From the NCBI GenBank assembly GCA_963809895.1, contig CAWELD010000003.1:1376001-1440000 (forward strand): a stretch of DNA of 64,000 nucleotides, written 5' to 3'. This document shows, one piece after another, positions 23,701 through 38,700 of this stretch. Position 1 is the first letter of the stretch, and each line of letters opens with the position of its first letter. Position numbers: made by a program. The stretch comes from an uncultured Gemmatimonadales bacterium. Its GTDB lineage: Bacteria; Gemmatimonadota; Gemmatimonadetes; Longimicrobiales; Gaopeijiaceae.

Positions 23701-26700
23701 CACCGGCGAGACGGTCATCCATCAGGGAGCGACGGGGGATTCTCTCTACGTCGTCGACGAGGGGCGCGTCGAGGTGCTGGTGCGCTCCGGCGACAAGGAG
23801 CCCGAACGGGTGGCCGAGCTCGGCGTGGCGTCGTTCTTCGGCGAGATGAGCATGATGGTGGACGAGCCGCGCTCGGCGACCATCCGCACGCTGACCCCCA
23901 CCCGCTTCTTCGTCATCGACCGCGACGCGTTCCGCGACATCCTGCTCGCGAATCCCGCCATCGGCGACCGTCTGTCCGAGACCCTGGCCCAGCGCAAGCG
24001 GGAGCTGGACGCGGCGTTGGCCACCCCCGTCGAGGAGCCGCCCGAGGTGGAAGAGCGGCGAATCCTGGACCGCATCCGCGACCTGTTCGGGTTCTGAGGA
24101 GCCTCAGCCTCCCCCGCCTCCTGCCTGCTTGCCGCGGAACGTCAGGGGGAGCTGCATCCAGACGCCCACGGCGCACTGACCCTGCAGGGCCTGGGTGAAT
24201 CGCACCTGCTTCGCCACGGCGAATCCGGCGGGCTGCAGGAGCTCGGCGCCGGACGCCCCCACGAGCCGGATGTCTTCGACCTCACCCTCGGGTCCGACGT
24301 AGAAGGCGAACACGAGCTTGCCGGAGAGCGCCTGTCTGGCAGCGGCCATGGCCCGCACGTACTGGCGCTGCTGTACGTCCTGGACCTTCTCCGGGTTGGC
24401 GATCCGGGGCCACATGGTCACTTCCTGGGCCCGCGGTCCTCCCGCTTGCGGCGCATCTTCCTGGGTCCAGGGCGCGGGATCGCACGGCGGCGCCAGGGAT
24501 TCGGACGCAGAGCGCGACCCGGCGCTGGCGCAGGCGGTGACAAGGGGGATGGCGGTTGCGGCGATGACGCGGCCGATGGTGACGCGGCGCACGGCCACTC
24601 CGGGTAGAGTGAAGGGGGGGACGCGCAAGCTAGTAGGCTGCGGTGGTGGGCGCGAGGGAGCGCTCGTGAACCCTGCACGCGGAGGGTTCGTAGGGACAGA
24701 ACGTGGACGCGTCCGGTACGGGCCGCTGCGATCCATCCACCCGATCGGTCGACGATGGGGTCCGGAGCGCGGGGGCCCGGCGCGTCACCTGCCACGCCCC
24801 ACACGGAGCGAACCCCGTGGCCCATCGCCCGCTACCCGACGCGGCATCCGCGGCCTCCACGGCGCCGGTTTCCAGGCCGGCGCCTTCCGTGGCCGAGGCC
24901 GACGCCGCCGGCGGGCGCACTGCCCTGCTGAGCGTGCTGGGGTGGCTGGCTCTCCTCGCAGGTGGCCTCATCCTGTCGTTGGGCATGGCCTCGCTGGTCG
25001 GAGCACGGGTGCGCTCGGCCGCGCTCGTAGACGTGGACCGGAGCCCGGTGGGGTCGGTGCCCTCGTACTCCGACGCGCCCCGGGCGGCGCTGGCCTTCTT
25101 CGCCCGGCGCGACACGGTCACGGTGCGGGTGTCCCGAGACATGACCGTAGCCGACTTCCTCGCGCTCTACCATCTGGAGACCAACGCGTCGGCCCGAGCA
25201 GCCCTGAGGGATCAGCTGGGCGCCGTGGCCGATGCCGACCTCCTGCGTGAGGGTGACGAGGTCACGCTCACCGTCACCGTCGGCCGGGAGACGCCATGAC
25301 GCCCGATCGCGATCCTTTCGAGTCGGGCCAGGACGCCACCGACGAGATCCGCCACGCCCTGGAAGCCATCCGCGCCGACGTGCGCGCCGTGGTGCAGGAC
25401 GAGGTGGCCCGAGCCGGCATGTCCGAAGGTGAGCTGGAGCGGTTCGTGGCCGACCTCGTGCGCAAGAACCTCACCGAGGCCGCCGAGGTCCGGCCGCGCG
25501 CCAGCGTGTGGAGCGCGCCCGTGCTCCTGCTCACCGGCCTGGTGGTGGGGCTGCTCGGGGGATTCGCCGGCTACTGGATGCTGGCGAGACCAACGACGGA
25601 CGGCGCACGTCCCCCGGCGCTGTCCTCGGCGGCACCCGACCCGGGAGCCGCCACCGCGCCCACCGAGACCGACGCCTCGGCCGCCCCCGCCAGCCAAGGC
25701 TCGCAATCCTCGACGTCGCCGCCACCGGCCGCGGCCGCGCCGACCGCGCTGGCCGCTCGCTACGATTCCCTCTTCGCGGCCCACGACCCGGGCCTGGAAC
25801 CGCTTCTGGCGGAGCTGGAGGGAAAGGCGGCCCCACCCGTGCTCGCCGCGCTGACGGAGTGGCGCGGCGGGGGGGCGCTGGACCCGGGCCCCCGGCGGCG
25901 GCTGCACGACGCACTGGTGCAGGCGGCGGTAAACCGCTTGGCCGGCACGGCTCTCACGCTGGACGGCCTGGTGACCCGGAACCCGTGCGGTGGGGCGTCG
26001 TGCGGCGCCATCCTGCAGCTGTGGCAGGCGCGAGGCCCTGAGCTGGGCCTGCCCGCGTATCCGGCAGCCGACACGGCCCGGGACGCCGCGCTGCCGACGG
26101 TGGAACGCGTCCTGGTCATGCGTGGACTGGAGGCCGACGGTGGCTGACGTCGTGTCGCTGGACCGTCACGTCCTGGCCTCACCGGCCACGGCCTTCGACA
26201 CGGCCTGGTCCACGTACGGCTGGACCCCCGGCATCCAGGACCGGGTGGGGCGCCTCGAGGAAGAGGTACCCTGGGGAACCCACGTGGCCCGGGCCACGGA
26301 CCCGCCGCGGTTGTCGGGACCGGCCCAGGCGCTCCTGAACCCCGACAACCTGGACCGGTTGGGAAGCGGGGTTCTGAGGGTGGACGGCCGCCTGGGCTTC
26401 GCCCTGTGGGGCGCCTTCGGATCGGGCTCCGGCGGCGCGGACCGCCGCGTGCTGACCCACACGCTGCTCATGGACGACGCCGCCTTCCGGCAGGTGGCCG
26501 GCTATCCGCAGGGGCTGCTCTGGGACGGCGACCGGCCGGCGGCGTGGTTCCGGGAGTTGGCGGAAGAGCAGGACTTCCTTGAACCCACACCGTTGACCCC
26601 GGTGCGGCTGGGTCTCGAGCGGGCGCGTACCGCGGCCCTCGCCCGGGCGCGCATCGTGGAGTTGGACCGGCTCCGGGGCGCCGTCCTGGATCAGCTCGGC

Positions 26701-35700: not shown

Positions 35701-38700
35701 CACGCCGCCTGGCCGGATCCTCGGCTGGAGCCGGGGGATTGGGTGCAGATGGCCAGCGGAGGGGTGTGGACCTGGCTGGCCGAGACCGACGACCGGGCCC
35801 GGGTCGCATCGTTCGTGCGCGTGCGGAACGACCGGGTGGAGCGCCTCTTCCCCGCCACCCGGCTGCAGCCCGTGCTGCAACCCTTCGGACGGGCCATGGA
35901 CCTGGCGCTCCAGACCGTGCCCGGCGGGTCGTCGGCCTCGCTGCTGCAGGCCGACGTGCGCCTGACGCTGGACCGGGAGCTCAGCGACGCCCTGGACGGG
36001 GTGATGGCGGACTGGTGCCGCGAGCACGCCGATCCCACGCGGCCGCGGGCGGCCTCGTTCCTGGTCATGGACGGCTTCACCGGCAAGGTGCGGGCCATGC
36101 CCAGCTGCCCGGGCGCCGCGGAGCTGGCGGCCTACGAGCCGCTGTCGGCGCGGACGCGGGAGCGCTTTCTCAGGAACCAGAACCTGGCGCCCCATCCCGT
36201 GGGGTCGGCGGCGAAGCCCTTCTGGACCGCCGCGGTGGCCACCACCTGGCCCAACATGCTGGACCTCCGGATCCCCGCCCACTCCCCAGGGCCGGCGGGG
36301 GCGGTGTTGGGCTGTCCGCTGTCGGCCCCCTATCACGACGGACACGGGTCCGCCGACTGGACCGGGCTCGAGACCTTCCTGCAGCGCTCGTGCAATCGCT
36401 ACGTGGTGCAGATGGCCTCGGCGGCGCTGGTCCTGGGATCCGCCACCGGCGGTGAGGCGTGCCGGGGGCCGCTGTCCGCGGCCGCGTTCGCGCGCTGCTT
36501 CCCGGCGGCGGAGGCAACCGGCGCCTCGGCCGCGGACTCCACCCGCGTGCTCCGCTTCTGTGACAACGTGGTGGCCACCGCGCTGGCGCCGGGGCTGGAG
36601 GTGGTGGGCGGGAGCTGCGACGACCTGCAGCTCGTCGATGCCGAGTTCGTGCCCGGTCCGGCGCTGTCGGCCATGACCAACGTGGCCGTCTACCGCGAGC
36701 CGTCGCCGGACCTCCGCGGGAGTGGGGGCTCGGCGGCGCTGGGCGATCAGTATCGCCTGGGCCGCTACCGGGTGGATGCCTGGCGGACCGTGCTCGATCG
36801 CCTCATCGCCGCCGGCGATACGGCCGACGTCGTGCACACTGCGCTACGGTTCGCCGGCGCGTCGCCCCAGGCCACCAACCTGGCGCTCAACACGGTGGAG
36901 GAGCTCCGCACCGACTGGGTCAACCTGCTGCTGGGCGGCGAGAACAGCCGCTGGTCCAACTTCGAGCTCGCCGAGGCCACGGCCCGGCTCATGACCGGGC
37001 GGGCCGTGCGAGGCACCTTCGCGGACAGCGTGGGACTGCCCGGGGGCGGGAATCCCCCCGCCGACTCGGCACCCCTGCTGGACGAGGCCACCGTGGCCCC
37101 CGGCGTCCGTCGCCGGGTGCTCCACGCCATGGAGCTGGTGGCGCGTCCGGGAGGCACCGCGGGGCGGCTGCAGCCGGCACTGGCCCGGCTGCGGGAGCGC
37201 GTGCGCGAGGCCGGCGGCCGCACCCCCTACGATCTCTACGCTTTCGCCAAGACCGGGACCCCCGCGGTGGAAACCTCCGCATCGGATCCGCGGCAGGGCG
37301 GCGTCCTCATCCTCGGCCTGCTGGCCGTGCCCAGCGACCAGGGTCGCAGCCGGGCCGTGTCCATGGACGCCTGGGTGAGCGCCTGCCCCCTGGATCCCGA
37401 TCTGCGCCGGGGGATTCTGGAAGTGCCACCCCGGGGCCTACTCGATCCCCAGCGCGCCGTGTCCCTGTCCGTGGCCATCTATCTGGACGACCTCGCCCCC
37501 GGCCAGGGGAGCGGCTCGGCCGTGGACCTGGCGCTCCGCGCTCTCGACGGTGTGGGCGATCTCATGGTCCGCGAGGTGGGGCGGAAGGTGGAGGATGCGG
37601 GCTGACCTGGGCACTCGGGCTCACCACCACCGCACACCGTCCGGGATGGCCCCGGCCCGGATCGCTCGCCGGGCCTCCGCGAGCGCCTTTTTCGCGTCGG
37701 GCCCATTCCAGAACCGTTCCACGGCATCGAGGTGACTCAGGACGGCCTCCCGCTCCCCCACCTCGAGGAGCTCGCGCGCGAGTGAAAAGCCCGGTCCGAA
37801 CGACGACAACCGAGGTGTACTCTCACTCTCCCCGGCTCGACGAAGGAACTCGAGGGCCTCCTCGCGCTGCTGGCGCCGGAGCGCCACCCGGCCCCGAAGC
37901 TGGTTCATCTGATACTGGGTGTCGCCCCGCGTCCGGACGTCCGCCTGCGGGAGGCCCCGCAATGCGCTCGCGGCTAGGGAATCCGCTCTGTCCAGGTCAC
38001 CGGCCTCGAAAAGCGCCTCCGCGAGCGGACGGACCAGCATTCCCCGGACCATTTCGGCTTCCGGCTCGTCCGTGGATGACGGGACCTCCGCGAGGATCCG
38101 CTCCAGGCACACCTGCGATCTCCGGAAGGCCTCACGCCGGGCTTCGCCCTCCATTCCCGCTCGGTCACGGGCCCGGACGACGCAGATGCCCGGTCCATAC
38201 GCAGCCCAGAGTAAGCCGTCGTCTCGGGTCCTCATCGCCGATACGACGATCGTCAGAGCGGTGTCCCGGTCGGCAAGCGTCAACAGGTAGGGGTTCTCTC
38301 TCAACCGGGAACCCAGGGCCTCCCACTCGACCTCGGACGAGGGCACCACGATCCGTTGCCCCGACAGAAATCCGGGGACACACAACAGCATCCCGATCCC
38401 CACCATGCATGTCTTCATCTCCGACTCACCCCCTCATTATCCGTGTCGGGCTCAGACTCCGCACATCCCCTTTTCGGCCCGGGGGCCCGCGCTCGTCAGG
38501 GAGAACTCCCGGGCGATCTTGAGGCGTTCGCGCGTCCGGACGGATCGACGCCGTATTCCAGAACCTGGGATTCACACGACGGGGGCGCCATTGGTCGATG
38601 GGCGACCTGTTCGTGGAGGTGCCGTCCACCCATCTCACCGATCCGAGTGAGACCATCCGGGTCGGGCGATGGGTCTTTGAGATCATCGCCAAAGAAGTGC

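Follow-up and report, generated by a model that had tools for sequence, protein, structure and literature searches.

The 64,000-nucleotide stretch of DNA analysed here, called the window below, carries a cassette of seven genes which we take as one copy of a conserved seven-gene unit, and which would couple a cytoplasmic nucleotide switch to a pair of polymer synthases in the membrane and periplasm. With moderate confidence, we infer that it makes up an accessory synthase of the cell wall, of the peptidoglycan type and gated by the switch. Third-position G+C frames and start and stop positions place seven tightly packed genes on the plus strand between positions 24817 and 37605 of the window, with successive overlaps of 4, 8, 4, 4, 4 and 4 nt from g50 to g56 (g01250 to g01256 of the survey), just as the survey had described seven co-directional genes overlapping by 4-8 nt. 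They are as follows, with the basis of each assignment in brackets.

g50, 24817..25299, + strand: 160 aa, bitopic membrane protein (GC3 frame, start and overlap, hydropathy).
g51, 25296..26147, + strand: 283 aa, bitopic membrane protein (GC3 frame, start and overlap, hydropathy).
g52, 26140..28263, + strand: 707 aa, cytoplasmic GAP1-like protein (GAP1-M below cut-off, language-model neighbours, hhalign).
g53, 28260..29783, + strand: 507 aa, zinc ribbon and TRAFAC-type GTPase (45-sequence alignment).
g54, 29780..31834, + strand: 684 aa, TPR-like protein (sub-threshold TPR matches, hydropathy).
g55, 31831..35046, + strand: 1071 aa, protein with a SEDS-fold membrane domain (AF2 model, fold search, hhalign, motifs).
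g56, 35043..37605, + strand: class-B PBP-like gene, broken here (frames, orthologues, structure searches).

None of g50-g56 reaches a cut-off of Pfam, NCBIfam or PADLOC, and the absence of Pfam and NCBIfam families reported by the survey holds, all seven lying below cut-off. The gene order is conserved: all seven are collinear with 4-nt overlaps in the genomes G180, G246 and G133, and seven more genome loci keep the order of g50 to g56 as far as their contigs extend. Upstream of the cassette, at a distance of 3 kb, is a HicB/nucleotidyltransferase gene.

What kind of protein is g55, for which Pfam gives no match at E<=1, SEDS models included, and whose family profile, run against PDB, retrieves no chain at E<=10? 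It is built of two N-terminal helices, a beta-rich domain (60-443) and a SEDS-fold membrane domain with extra helices (465-1038), and its AF2 model reaches pLDDT 84.4 and pTM 0.87. When this model is compared with 48,161 chains by VIA-align, RodA 8tj3_B (Z 17.6), FtsW 8bh1_A (16.6) and RodA 6pl5_A (15.9) come first, with 313-327 residues aligned, while the score drops to 9.0 at the next rank, and WaaL, the nearest genuine relative after these, has Z 8.6; in a second fold comparison the best five are SEDS proteins, and thereafter the score falls to 6.5. By hhalign, g55 aligns with 29 SEDS sequences over 335 collinear columns (E 2.2e-4), and the SEDS-like motifs R644, S648, D707-x-G709, G822-x-G824, G853-L-x-G856 and N994...G1002 are kept. 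These results support a SEDS fold, as modelled, for the C-terminal ~570 residues, and the SEDS likeness proposed by the survey now stands far more firmly than it did there. However, g55 differs from the SEDS members of the known SEDS-class B PBP pairs (RodA-PBP2 and FtsW-FtsI; 8tj3, 6pl5, 8bh1, 8p1u) in that sequence models do not recognise it, and in that its SEDS part has 14 helices instead of 10, in addition to the two N-terminal helices and the 380-aa beta-rich domain.

A further difference concerns the active site. In g55, V/L and T stand where E. coli RodA has its Glu114/Lys117 pair, and Arg-Glu-His takes the place of the His-Thr-Asp of SEDS proteins. Since His842 thereby aligns with the catalytic Asp262 of RodA, polymerase chemistry of g55 is not assured. 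Glu841 is found in 45 of 46 family sequences, six sequences of a sister subfamily carrying Asp there; His842 is likewise found in 45/46, with Asn instead in the sister subfamily, so that family-wide conservation is limited to the acidic residue just before the catalytic position. Thus, of the "third peptidoglycan polymerase" of the survey, the SEDS fold is retained while the polymerase role is put in doubt by the lost Glu/Lys pair and the exchanged triplet. It might be imagined that g55 is a SEDS-fold ligase or polymerase of another undecaprenyl-diphosphate-linked glycan, using His842 much as O-antigen ligases employ their catalytic His, and that g56 serves as carboxypeptidase, sensor or scaffold and not as a transpeptidase for g55. 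Such a role would suit the near-constant His842 and the missing Glu/Lys pair, as well as the four extra membrane helices and the separate ~380-aa domain; according to a passage of a CAZy study, the essential Asp of SEDS proteins and the His used in catalysis by O-antigen ligases are aligned positions in clan GT-C1 (PMC10920833), and WaaL (GT121, 7tpj), a member of this clan shared with SEDS, has the next related fold. We nevertheless regard it as quite improbable, because the match to RodA/FtsW is about twice as strong as that to WaaL, because His842 gives way to Asn in the sister subfamily while its acidic neighbour is universal, and because g55 is strictly paired with a class-B PBP in which SxxK, SxN and KTG are retained, a partner which WaaL does not have and which points to a substrate with D-Ala-D-Ala stem peptides. 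In the reading as a wall synthase, g55 would be a SEDS-fold glycosyltransferase of the type using lipid-linked sugars, with an extra periplasmic beta-rich domain.

As for g56, both the class-B PBP character and the motifs seen by the survey are borne out. The 620-aa frame from 35743 contains S155-A-A-K158, S216-C-N218 and K503-T-G505 (the survey numbered them on a 618-aa form from the ATG at 35749), and the three motifs are invariant or nearly so across 52 family members. When the family profile is run against PDB, PBPs make up the top 26 of 49 matches (best E 9.4e-5). An AF2 model of the G180 orthologue (pLDDT 86.1) finds, among the 50 Foldseek matches listed, class-B PBP-type transpeptidases throughout, the best being 7onn at E 2.7e-12, and the VIA fold search gives 3ue3_A at Z 31.0 with 387/436 aligned. 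Long inserts and many conserved Cys residues in the family alignment set g56 apart from the PBPs of known pairs. The survey's assignment of g56 as a lipoprotein is ruled out: intact orthologues carry a plain N-terminal membrane helix, and the apparent lipoprotein Cys appeared because an extra base at 35100 had been read through; once this base is removed, the sequence here gives such a helix too. In the wall-synthase reading, g56 would be a class-B PBP anchored in the membrane, its acyl-serine triad intact, and would cross-link the polymer of g55.

PBP folds also occur in sensors, and MecR1 and BlaR1 are among the weaker structural matches of g56 (Z 18-20). Together with the large periplasmic domains of three cassette proteins, this could mean that the PBP-like and beta-rich domains sense muropeptides or beta-lactams, as BlaR1/MecR1 do, with the GTPase as output, and therefore that the signal travels inward. 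This is very unlikely in our opinion, as g56 matches best not sensor domains but complete class-B PBPs, pedestal region included, at Z 27-31 across residues 119-839, the partner g55 has a polymerase fold with polar motifs kept at the periplasmic face, and family searches revealed no DNA-binding or other output domain in the cassette.

The survey had also noticed that the 5' third of g56 is split over three frames, and frame analysis confirms that the split is real in the assembly. From the ATG at 35043 in frame 3, reading passes to frame 1 after 35100, to frame 2 after 35187 and to frame 1 again after 35721, and ends at the stop at 37605, the intact C-terminal frame of 620 aa (35743-37605) holding SxxK, SxN and KTG. 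The positions were compared with X1 and X4, contigs of close relatives from two sequencing runs of two studies, as follows.

Extra T, 35100, + strand: frame 3 to frame 1 (base absent from X1 and X4 contigs; not a homopolymer).
Extra G in a GGG run, 35187, + strand: frame 1 to frame 2 (base absent from X1 and X4 contigs).
One base missing, 35721..35722, + strand: frame 2 to frame 1 (one X4 contig, at depth 2, has G after 35721; tblastn frames).

These indels are confined to this genome, and the orthologues are intact with 846-858 aa. Because of the three single-base indels, the cassette as assembled lacks a transpeptidase and is probably not working in this genome.

g56 strictly follows g55. 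It lies directly behind g55 in 11/11 genome loci and in 20 of the 21 informative metagenome loci, the exception being the short contig L082. The two resemble known SEDS-bPBP pairs in joining a polytopic SEDS-fold gene to one for a bitopic pedestal-plus-transpeptidase protein, as well as in the intact SxxK/SxN/KTG of g56 and the several SEDS loop motifs kept by g55. A predicted g55-g56 complex also scores above controls (0.53 against 0.00 for the best control), a pass which counts as weak up to 0.60; the mark was reached by 116/157 solved complexes and by 2/215 mismatched pairs, and between runs at least 80% of contacts agree, with partner pLDDT at least 70. The pair may pass simply because it resembles SEDS-bPBP complexes already solved. 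In contrast to those pairs, g55 and g56 share their cassette with genes for a GTPase and a GAP1-like protein and do not lie in the mrd or dcw clusters, where this genome keeps its canonical RodA-PBP2 and FtsW/FtsI genes; that the cassette pair is additional to these, as the survey stated, is correct.

The two genes of the predicted cytoplasmic switch are g52 and g53. Residues 196-271 of g52 match Pfam GAP1-M at E 8e-4 (20 bits), and g52 is the best match of this model in the whole genome, just under the cut-off (23.2 bits vs 24); 2/10 orthologues match it, every one below cut-off. Its language-model neighbours are GAP1 clusters throughout (score 0.95, 209 shared features), and hhalign relates it to a ~1000-aa GAP1-M-bearing protein of distant operons (probability 83%, E 8.5e-6), so the GAP1 assignment of the survey is supported in the form "GAP1-like". 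In g53, an N-terminal CxxC...CxxC zinc ribbon and a low-complexity linker precede a TRAFAC-type GTPase domain, and an alignment of 45 sequences displays G1 G-L-P-R-H-G-K-T, G3 D-x-A-G-E-D and G4 S-K-A-D, which agrees with the zinc ribbon plus P-loop GTPase proposed earlier. The DO-GTPase models of Pfam did not match g53; DO-GTPase2 appears below threshold in 2 of 70 scanned distant relatives, Atlas neighbours (DO-GTPase1/2 and MMR_HSR1 at 0.87) provide a lead only, and hhalign against DO-GTPase2-bearing neighbours gives a probability of just 24%. The distant operons L080 and L081 begin with a DO-GTPase2 that passes the Pfam cut-off (38.5 and 37.7 bits vs 27); behind it come GAP1-like genes, a g53-type GTPase (hhalign probability 98.8%), a g54-type gene and genes of the g55 and g56 types. 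Because these variants open with a Pfam-positive DO-GTPase2, the tie to DO-GTPase/GAP1 systems is strengthened.

Such GTPase-centric systems were predicted by Kaur, Burroughs, Iyer and Aravind (eLife 2020; PMC7159879), whose paper gives DO-GTPases a Walker-B Glu and a zinc ribbon and lists FNIII and GASH components. The cassette is alike in that a TRAFAC GTPase with zinc ribbon and Walker-B Glu adjoins a GAP1-like protein, in its many membrane components and link to the cell wall, and in the two GTPases of its distant variants, one a Pfam-positive DO-GTPase2. It differs in that its GAP1-like gene lies upstream of the GTPase, typically downstream in that paper; in that family searches detected no FNIII or GASH component in the cassette or orthologous loci; in that g53 and g52 fall under Pfam cut-offs; and in that the associated pair is a SEDS-like/PBP-like synthase. 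Penicillin, transpeptidase, FtsW, SEDS and PBP go unmentioned in the paper's main text and two of its supplementary files, and we found no description in print of a GTPase/GAP1 joined to such a wall-synthase pair. A GTPase gene lies upstream of the pair in 11/11 genome loci and in 6/9 informative metagenome loci, plus one weak case; at L084 and L094 a trio of TPR, SEDS-like and PBP-like genes has no GTPase gene adjoining the pair. The GTPase module is thus not obligatory. Of the GTPase-GAP1 switch with wall-synthase output put forward by the survey, the PBP, the SEDS fold, the zinc-ribbon GTPase and the GAP1-like protein are supported; the polymerase role is less assured, the GTPase module is missing at two related loci, and the PBP gene is broken here.

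The cassette occurs in 12/401 genomes of the order and in 0/14 other genomes of the same genus, and its G+C of 74.9% is the highest among 2604 windows across the genome. This patchy presence and extreme composition, with flanks not shared here, would suit the survey's view that it moves as one block; against it, no mobility genes were seen, one upstream neighbour is common to four genomes, and phylogenetic trees do not require transfer. Rarity and composition would also suit a conflict (defence) system, in which an invader is sensed by the GTPase-GAP1 part and the SEDS-like/PBP-like pair acts as effector, either stopping infection by a fortified or altered wall or, as an abortive response, damaging the wall metabolism of its own cell, for example through use of lipid II. 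GAP1 and DO-GTPase affinities, the HicB/nucleotidyltransferase gene and the loss of a single gene by frameshifts, as expected of a dispensable accessory system, fit this idea too, and Kaur et al. describe these neighbourhoods as mobile and as carrying varied effector-like components, many of which are associated with membrane or cell wall (PMC7159879). We consider it unlikely, however: at E<=1 PADLOC finds nothing in the cassette apart from one chance-level ZorF match, no other defence genes were seen immediately next to this locus or the related loci examined, the pair has the build of a biosynthetic machine, its catalytic-type motifs strongly conserved, and not that of a toxin, and for GTPase-centric systems as such a part in defence is so far a prediction.

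How could the switch act on a wall synthase across the membrane? Hydropathy places membrane helices of g54 at 27-45 and 631-649, either side of a ~585-aa TPR-like domain that is presumably periplasmic; its TPR matches are all sub-threshold (best TPR_4, E 3e-5), and hhalign pairs g54 with the equivalent gene of the distant operons (probability 96%). g50 has a single hydrophobic helix at 37-55 and then a conserved C-terminal domain of ~100 aa, with orthologues at 9/10 related genome loci and a relative at the distant locus L079 (E 4e-17), and g51 consists of a charged N-terminal 68 aa, a helix at 69-87, an Ala/Pro/Ser-rich linker and a C-terminal domain. By tblastn, orthologues of g51 are present at 6/10 related genome loci (L013, L014, L015, L063, L065, L066); L061, L062 and L064 have a gap of g51-like size where it is expected, and the contig of L067 stops short of the position. 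Family searches gave no match for g50 or g51. With its large TPR-like domain, g54 could pass a signal across the membrane together with bitopic g50 and g51. Assembly or activity of the g55-g56 pair would then depend on the GTP state of g53, which g52 would set or read; the topology, the complex, the peptidoglycan-type substrate, the direction of signalling and the occasion on which the bacterium would call on this accessory synthase are likewise predictions of the model.

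The seven genes at 24817-37605 stand as plus-strand reading frames by third-position G+C and by inspection of starts and stops, and each of them overlaps its successor, by 4, 8, 4, 4, 4 and 4 nt in turn. All seven proteins stay below the family cut-offs of Pfam, NCBIfam and PADLOC. Pfam shows only faint matches, to GAP1-M for g52 (E 8e-4), to P-loop families for g53 and to TPR families for g54. A PADLOC scan of the cassette gave nothing usable, and a scan for promoters and terminators gave nothing exceeding shuffled sequences. Membrane helices are predicted in g50, g51 and g54, which makes these membrane proteins, while g52 and g53 are predicted to be without a helix. 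The flanks consist of ordinary genes. The cassette and its neighbourhood in the window are as follows.

24817-37605 (+), the cassette, g50 to g56
31831-35046 (+), g55, SEDS-fold protein of 1071 aa
35043-37605 (+), g56, class-B PBP-like gene, frameshifted
upstream of the cassette, an MscS-type channel with a cNMP-binding domain, and a TonB_C protein
downstream of the cassette, a PadR regulator and, behind it, a MacB/FtsX permease
12501-15185 (-) and 38947-41989 (+), paralogous MacB_PCD/FtsX-type permeases of ~890 aa each on the two sides of the region, the downstream one preceded by the PadR regulator
21030-22100 (+), ORF with HicB and nucleotidyltransferase (NTP_transf_2/Polbeta) parts, toxin-antitoxin-like, 3 kb 5' of the cassette, overlapping the 5' end of an opposite-strand Big_2 ORF (18638-21526)
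37621-38522, straight after the cassette, a minus-strand ORF of 265 aa and a plus-strand ORF of 246 aa that overlap, neither with a Pfam family

The same genome has a canonical RodA beside PBP2 at 529-531 kb of contig C3, canonical FtsW and FtsI at 1526-1534 kb of C3, and a third PF00905 protein. The seven family profiles find a single copy of the cassette in a whole-genome scan, and none of them matches the canonical RodA, FtsW, PBP2 or FtsI at E<=1e-3.

What kind of protein, then, is g55? None of its 64 collected homologues carries a Pfam domain; the model PF01098 of the SEDS family (FtsW/RodA/SpoVE), which is GT119 in CAZy, has no match in g55 at E<=1 or in three orthologues at E<=0.1, and a genome-wide search with the model returns only the two canonical genes, not g55. 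The profile of the family, whose alignment holds 46 sequences, has 0 matches in the PDB by hmmsearch at E<=10. The link to SEDS proteins in sequence runs only through profile-profile comparison by hhalign, in which 335 columns align collinearly (E 2.2e-4, probability 45%) with a set of 28 Gemmatimonadota SEDS sequences and E. coli RodA, two loci of one genome being left out. The AF2 model of g55 has a pLDDT of 84.4 and a pTM of 0.87. Foldseek with the whole model gave no match at E<=0.001, and only FtsW 8p1u_A stood out (probability 0.98, E 0.13). The structure search VIA-align, which covered 48,161 chains, placed RodA and FtsW in the first three ranks, so that the SEDS-like assignment made in the survey's finding is upheld.

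Matches of the g55 model in the VIA-align search
E. coli RodA 8tj3_B: Z 17.6, rmsd 3.9, 313 of 341 residues aligned
P. aeruginosa FtsW 8bh1_A: Z 16.6, 327 of 348 aligned
T. thermophilus RodA 6pl5_A: Z 15.9, 320 of 336 aligned
fourth-ranked chain, a designed cage and unrelated: Z 9.0, 272 of 694 aligned
WaaL 7tpj_B: Z 8.6, 331 of 403 aligned

A second structure look also gave five SEDS chains first and then a drop to 6.5. Residues 465-1038 of the model match the ten-helix SEDS membrane fold, and g55, as modelled, has this fold. Its SEDS domain has four helices more than in SEDS proteins and is preceded by a further one; other additions are two helices at the N-terminus and a beta-rich domain (residues 60-443) with no convincing structural match (best Z 5.5-6.8), which, judged from helix parity with the SEDS topology, should be periplasmic. 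Between SEDS helices 8 and 9 lies an inserted pair of membrane helices with a loop (residues 899-970, window 34525-34740); this insert is absent from a distant subfamily, since profile positions ~882-944 are unmatched in the metagenomic loci L076-L081, L084 and others.

The residues of the SEDS active site are partly kept and partly replaced in g55. R109 of E. coli RodA corresponds to R644, present in 46 of the 46 sequences, S113 to S648, and D159 of the QPDLG motif to D707, again in 46 of 46. The Glu/Lys pair of loop 2 is lost, V or L649 standing at the place of E114 and T652 at that of K117; E114, K117 and D159 are residues that matter in RodA. The His-Thr-Asp262 of RodA aligns to R840-E841-H842 of g55 (43, 45 and 45 of 46), without an Asp, in a register that follows as a gapless run from a G-L-x-G anchor and in which hhalign confidence is low. 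The doubt that had been attached to the catalytic Asp agrees with this alignment, in which g55 is without an Asp at the site of RodA D262 and FtsW D297. This Asp at the end of extracellular loop 4 is essential in SEDS proteins: FtsW is reported to tolerate H295A, T296A and E150A but to be dead with D297A (PMC8765783), so that the lost Glu of g55 is not decisive. According to a CAZy study, O-antigen ligases have their catalytic His where the essential Asp of SEDS proteins stands in the alignment (PMC10920833), and His842 of g55 could therefore be ligase-like. It is to be noted that a metagenome sister subfamily of g55 has the triplet D/N-D-N, as found in the loci L093 and L094, in place of the R-E-H of the window. 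Across both groups position 841 alone keeps its character, being acidic throughout (Glu in g55, Asp in the sister subfamily), and because of this a carboxylate one place away from the Asp site would, in an alignment that is weak at this spot, be likelier to be the catalytic residue than His842.

The partner of g55 is easier to name. The 620-aa frame of g56 at 35743-37605 contains S155-x-x-K158, S216-C-N218 and K503-T-G505, and these three motifs, which had been described as invariant, show no or hardly any variation across a family alignment of 52 sequences. With the family profile, 49 PDB sequences are matched at E<=1, the top 26 of them all PBPs, and the best is N. gonorrhoeae PBP2 (E 9.4e-5), aligned across the SxxK region. 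The fold was taken from the AF2 model of the intact orthologue in the related genome G180 (846 aa, pLDDT 86.1, pTM 0.85), which has an N-terminal membrane helix at 4-24. All 50 entries listed by Foldseek for this model are class-B PBP-type transpeptidases, with E. coli PBP3 7onn as the best (E 2.7e-12), and a search of 48,161 chains independent of Foldseek placed A. baumannii PBP3 3ue3_A first (Z 31.0, rmsd 3.5, 387 of 436 residues). Since the latter alignment spans residues 119-839 of the model and 69-597 of PBP3, the pedestal region is matched as well as the transpeptidase; class-B PBPs outrank class A and beta-lactamases in these matches. Pfam finds neither Transpeptidase (PF00905) nor a PBP dimer domain in the g56 of the window or in three orthologues, and the genome-wide PF00905 search misses the gene; PF00905 is found in the distant relative at L094 (23.9 bits against a cut-off of 22.1) and in one relative from the database, P0129. 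Thus, g56 is a class-B PBP-type protein, broken in the window. Nine nearly invariant Cys lie in the periplasmic part of the family, and the alignment suggests several conserved disulfides. Several such disulfides are unusual among class-B PBPs.

The break itself was noticed before, and the 5' part is indeed split over three frames: from the ATG at 35043 three frame changes follow, by which the anchor and the N-terminal module are spread over three frames, while in ten other genomes g56 is one open frame. In two sequencing runs, each from another study, contigs of close relatives have one base fewer at 35100 and one fewer at 35187, and one such contig has an additional G behind 35721; these differences are exactly the three frame shifts. 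The runs that best cover the window contain 0.19-0.22 of its words and come from close relatives, not from the source sample. The three indels may be errors of the assembly; homopolymers are absent from two of the three sites and the remaining long genes of the window are intact, for which reason the balance leans towards real mutations. One earlier reading is withdrawn by the comparison. Without the extra base at 35100 the N-terminus becomes a hydrophobic helix, and therefore the Cys on which g56 had been called a lipoprotein is rejected as an artefact of that base.

SEDS proteins work with a cognate class-B PBP whose gene is usually close by. In all 11 genome loci g56 lies directly 3' of g55, and of 21 informative metagenome loci 20 show the same, the sole exception being a contig of 1.2 kb. 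Do the two proteins also bind each other? Complex prediction with G180 g55 400-964 and g56 1-320 scored 0.53 against 0.00 for the best control, over a mark that solved complexes attain in 116 of 157 cases and mismatched pairs in 2 of 215; passes up to 0.60 count as weak. Between the runs at least 80% of contacts recur, with partner pLDDT of at least 70. This prediction gives weak support to physical binding, and, because SEDS-bPBP complexes have already been solved, the pass may reflect merely likeness to them.

On the cytoplasmic side, the survey's finding had spoken of a Ras-like GTPase. The GTPase part of this name holds, as the g53 family has G-L-P-R-H-G-K-T, D223-x-A-G-E227-D and S-K-A-D motifs, but the Ras label is loose, as no Ras family was matched. 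A CxxC...CxxC zinc ribbon is found in the clade of the window only, that is, in part of the family. In the description of Kaur et al. (PMC7159879), DO-GTPases are a TRAFAC clade with a Walker-B Glu and frequent zinc ribbons, and g53 shares with them the TRAFAC-type motifs, the Walker-B Glu and the N-terminal zinc ribbon. The DO-GTPase models PF19975 and PF19993 have no match in g53 or three orthologues. A g53 profile search of 1.84 billion representatives collected 99 relatives; two of the 70 scanned have sub-threshold DO-GTPase2 matches (E 8.5e-5 and 1.3e-4) and several have zinc ribbons. Protein-language-model neighbours in the Atlas clusters (score 0.87) are a lead only, and hhalign of g53 against the DO-GTPase2-bearing genes of the loci L079-L081 is weak (probability 24%, E 8e-4). 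Against the PDB, the g53 and g52 profiles gave chance-level P-loop or unrelated matches only (E>=0.2).

Among the GAP1 models of Pfam (PF20012, PF20013, PF20014 and PF20052), GAP1-M reaches 20 bits in a scan of g52 by itself and 23.2 bits in the genome search, where g52 is the best match of the genome, against a cut-off of 24; GAP1-M is matched at the same place in two of ten orthologues, and GAP1-N and GAP1-C domains have no match in g52. The Atlas neighbours (0.95) are exclusively GAP1 clusters. Thus, g52 is GAP1-like. Canonical GAP1-M above the cut-off occurs in 0 of 301 genomes of the phylum, so that there is no local GAP1 alignment for a profile-profile test. g52 and g53 share 4 nt, and in all ten related genome loci the two genes stand in this order where the contig reaches. 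With its GAP1-like gene first, the cassette is unlike the order that Kaur et al. give as typical, and GASH or FNIII components, which according to the same paper go with GAP1-N1 (GASH) and, as FNIII repeats, with GAP1-N2 (PMC7159879), give no Pfam match in the seven proteins of the window (E<=1) or in 21 orthologues (E<=0.1).

How far is the cassette spread? A g56 query has a match in 5 of 401 genomes for the phylum and in 12 of 401 genomes, from 7 of 127 genera, for the order, and in none of 14 other genomes of the window's genus. A single-protein locus search of genome contigs gave one locus, and the genome search was used in its place. Ten related genome loci show an identical gene order to the limits of their contigs, and a metagenome scan added 22 cassette-related loci. 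A g53-type GTPase lies upstream in six of nine informative metagenome loci, with one further weak case, and is absent in two. The proposal that the cassette is a GTPase-linked unit holds for all ten genome loci but not for the following two, where the pair occurs without a GTPase.

L084, 5826-13583: TPR gene, g55 and g56, with no GTPase or GAP1 gene near and a divergent radical-SAM gene upstream
L094, 3601-10173: hybrid histidine kinase, signal peptidase S26, then g55 and g56, with no GTPase or GAP1 gene near

In a distant version of the operon, at L080 and L081, DO-GTPase2 comes first (38.5 and 37.7 bits against a Pfam cut-off of 27) and is followed by GAP1-like genes, a g53-type GTPase and then genes of the g54, g55 and g56 types; hhalign relates the genes of distant operons to the families of the window with probabilities of 98.8% for g53, 96% for g54 and 83% for g52. 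A WD40 beta-propeller gene (L079, 5-760) lies directly 5' of this two-GTPase version. The g55 and g56 relatives of L093 and L094 are on contigs of 49-50% G+C, and thus the family extends beyond high-G+C Gemmatimonadota.

It had also been proposed that the cassette moves between genomes as one block. Its G+C of 74.9% is above that of all 2604 equal-length windows of the genome (mean 69.4%, SD 1.75), which makes it the richest-G+C 12.8-kb stretch of the 5.33-Mb genome, and straight after it the value drops to 64.5% (38000-39000). The flanks in the window have no match with any other locus. An upstream BNR-repeat gene is common to four genomes of two genera. In trees, seven copies from the window's family form one clade, outside which the window copy and a copy from a Longimicrobiales MAG (72% identical) are placed with copies from two other families. 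The changes of family label that are forced number two in the g56 tree and one each in the g55 and g53 trees, and the trees alone do not force a transfer, as more than one change is needed in the g56 tree only. A mobile element was considered, but the examined flanks showed no integrase, transposase or evident repeat. The extreme G+C and the unmatched flanks speak for the proposal here, but the missing mobility genes and the trees do not; acquisition of the cassette by transfer in this genome is likely, and a general movement as one block is borne out only in part.

The best-supported reading of the cassette is a putative switch-gated accessory synthase of peptidoglycan or of a closely related peptide-bearing glycan. 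On the cytoplasmic side it has a GTPase and a GAP1-like partner; to these come three accessory membrane proteins and the pair of SEDS-fold protein and class-B PBP, whose polar motifs facing the periplasm are strongly conserved. At the core of bacterial wall building are SEDS-bPBP pairs, which are also major targets of antibiotics, and the known pairs are under cytoskeletal control, RodA-PBP2 being steered by MreB and FtsW-FtsI by FtsZ/FtsA. With a third, very divergent pair under a TRAFAC GTPase and its GAP1-like neighbour, wall synthesis would have a regulatory logic of a new kind, and g55, with a clear SEDS fold but altered catalytic residues, would be a natural experiment on the needs of the active site. 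Our literature searches found no paper describing a SEDS-like/PBP-like pair with a GTPase and GAP1, and the main text and two supplementary files of Kaur et al. (PMC7159879), with the main source-data table outside the search, contain no PBP, transpeptidase, FtsW or SEDS.

For GTPase-centric systems, so far a computational prediction alone, a conflict role was proposed by Kaur et al. (PMC7159879), and the cassette would offer a first concrete, testable output. The cassette itself may serve such a conflict role, morphogenesis or stress. A bolder reading, which we hold tentatively and would not yet bet on, is that an unrecognised but widespread class of 'private' envelope synthases exists, in which a rebuilt SEDS-fold polymerase, gated by GTPase and GAP1, carries out a second wall synthesis on demand. 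The catalytic centre of such a synthase may be Glu or Asp at 841 with His or Asn, without the Glu/Lys pair, and its gating may come from the cytoplasm, for use in conflict, differentiation or stress. If this bolder reading is true, some of the 'GTPase-centric conflict systems' would be regulators of envelope biogenesis.
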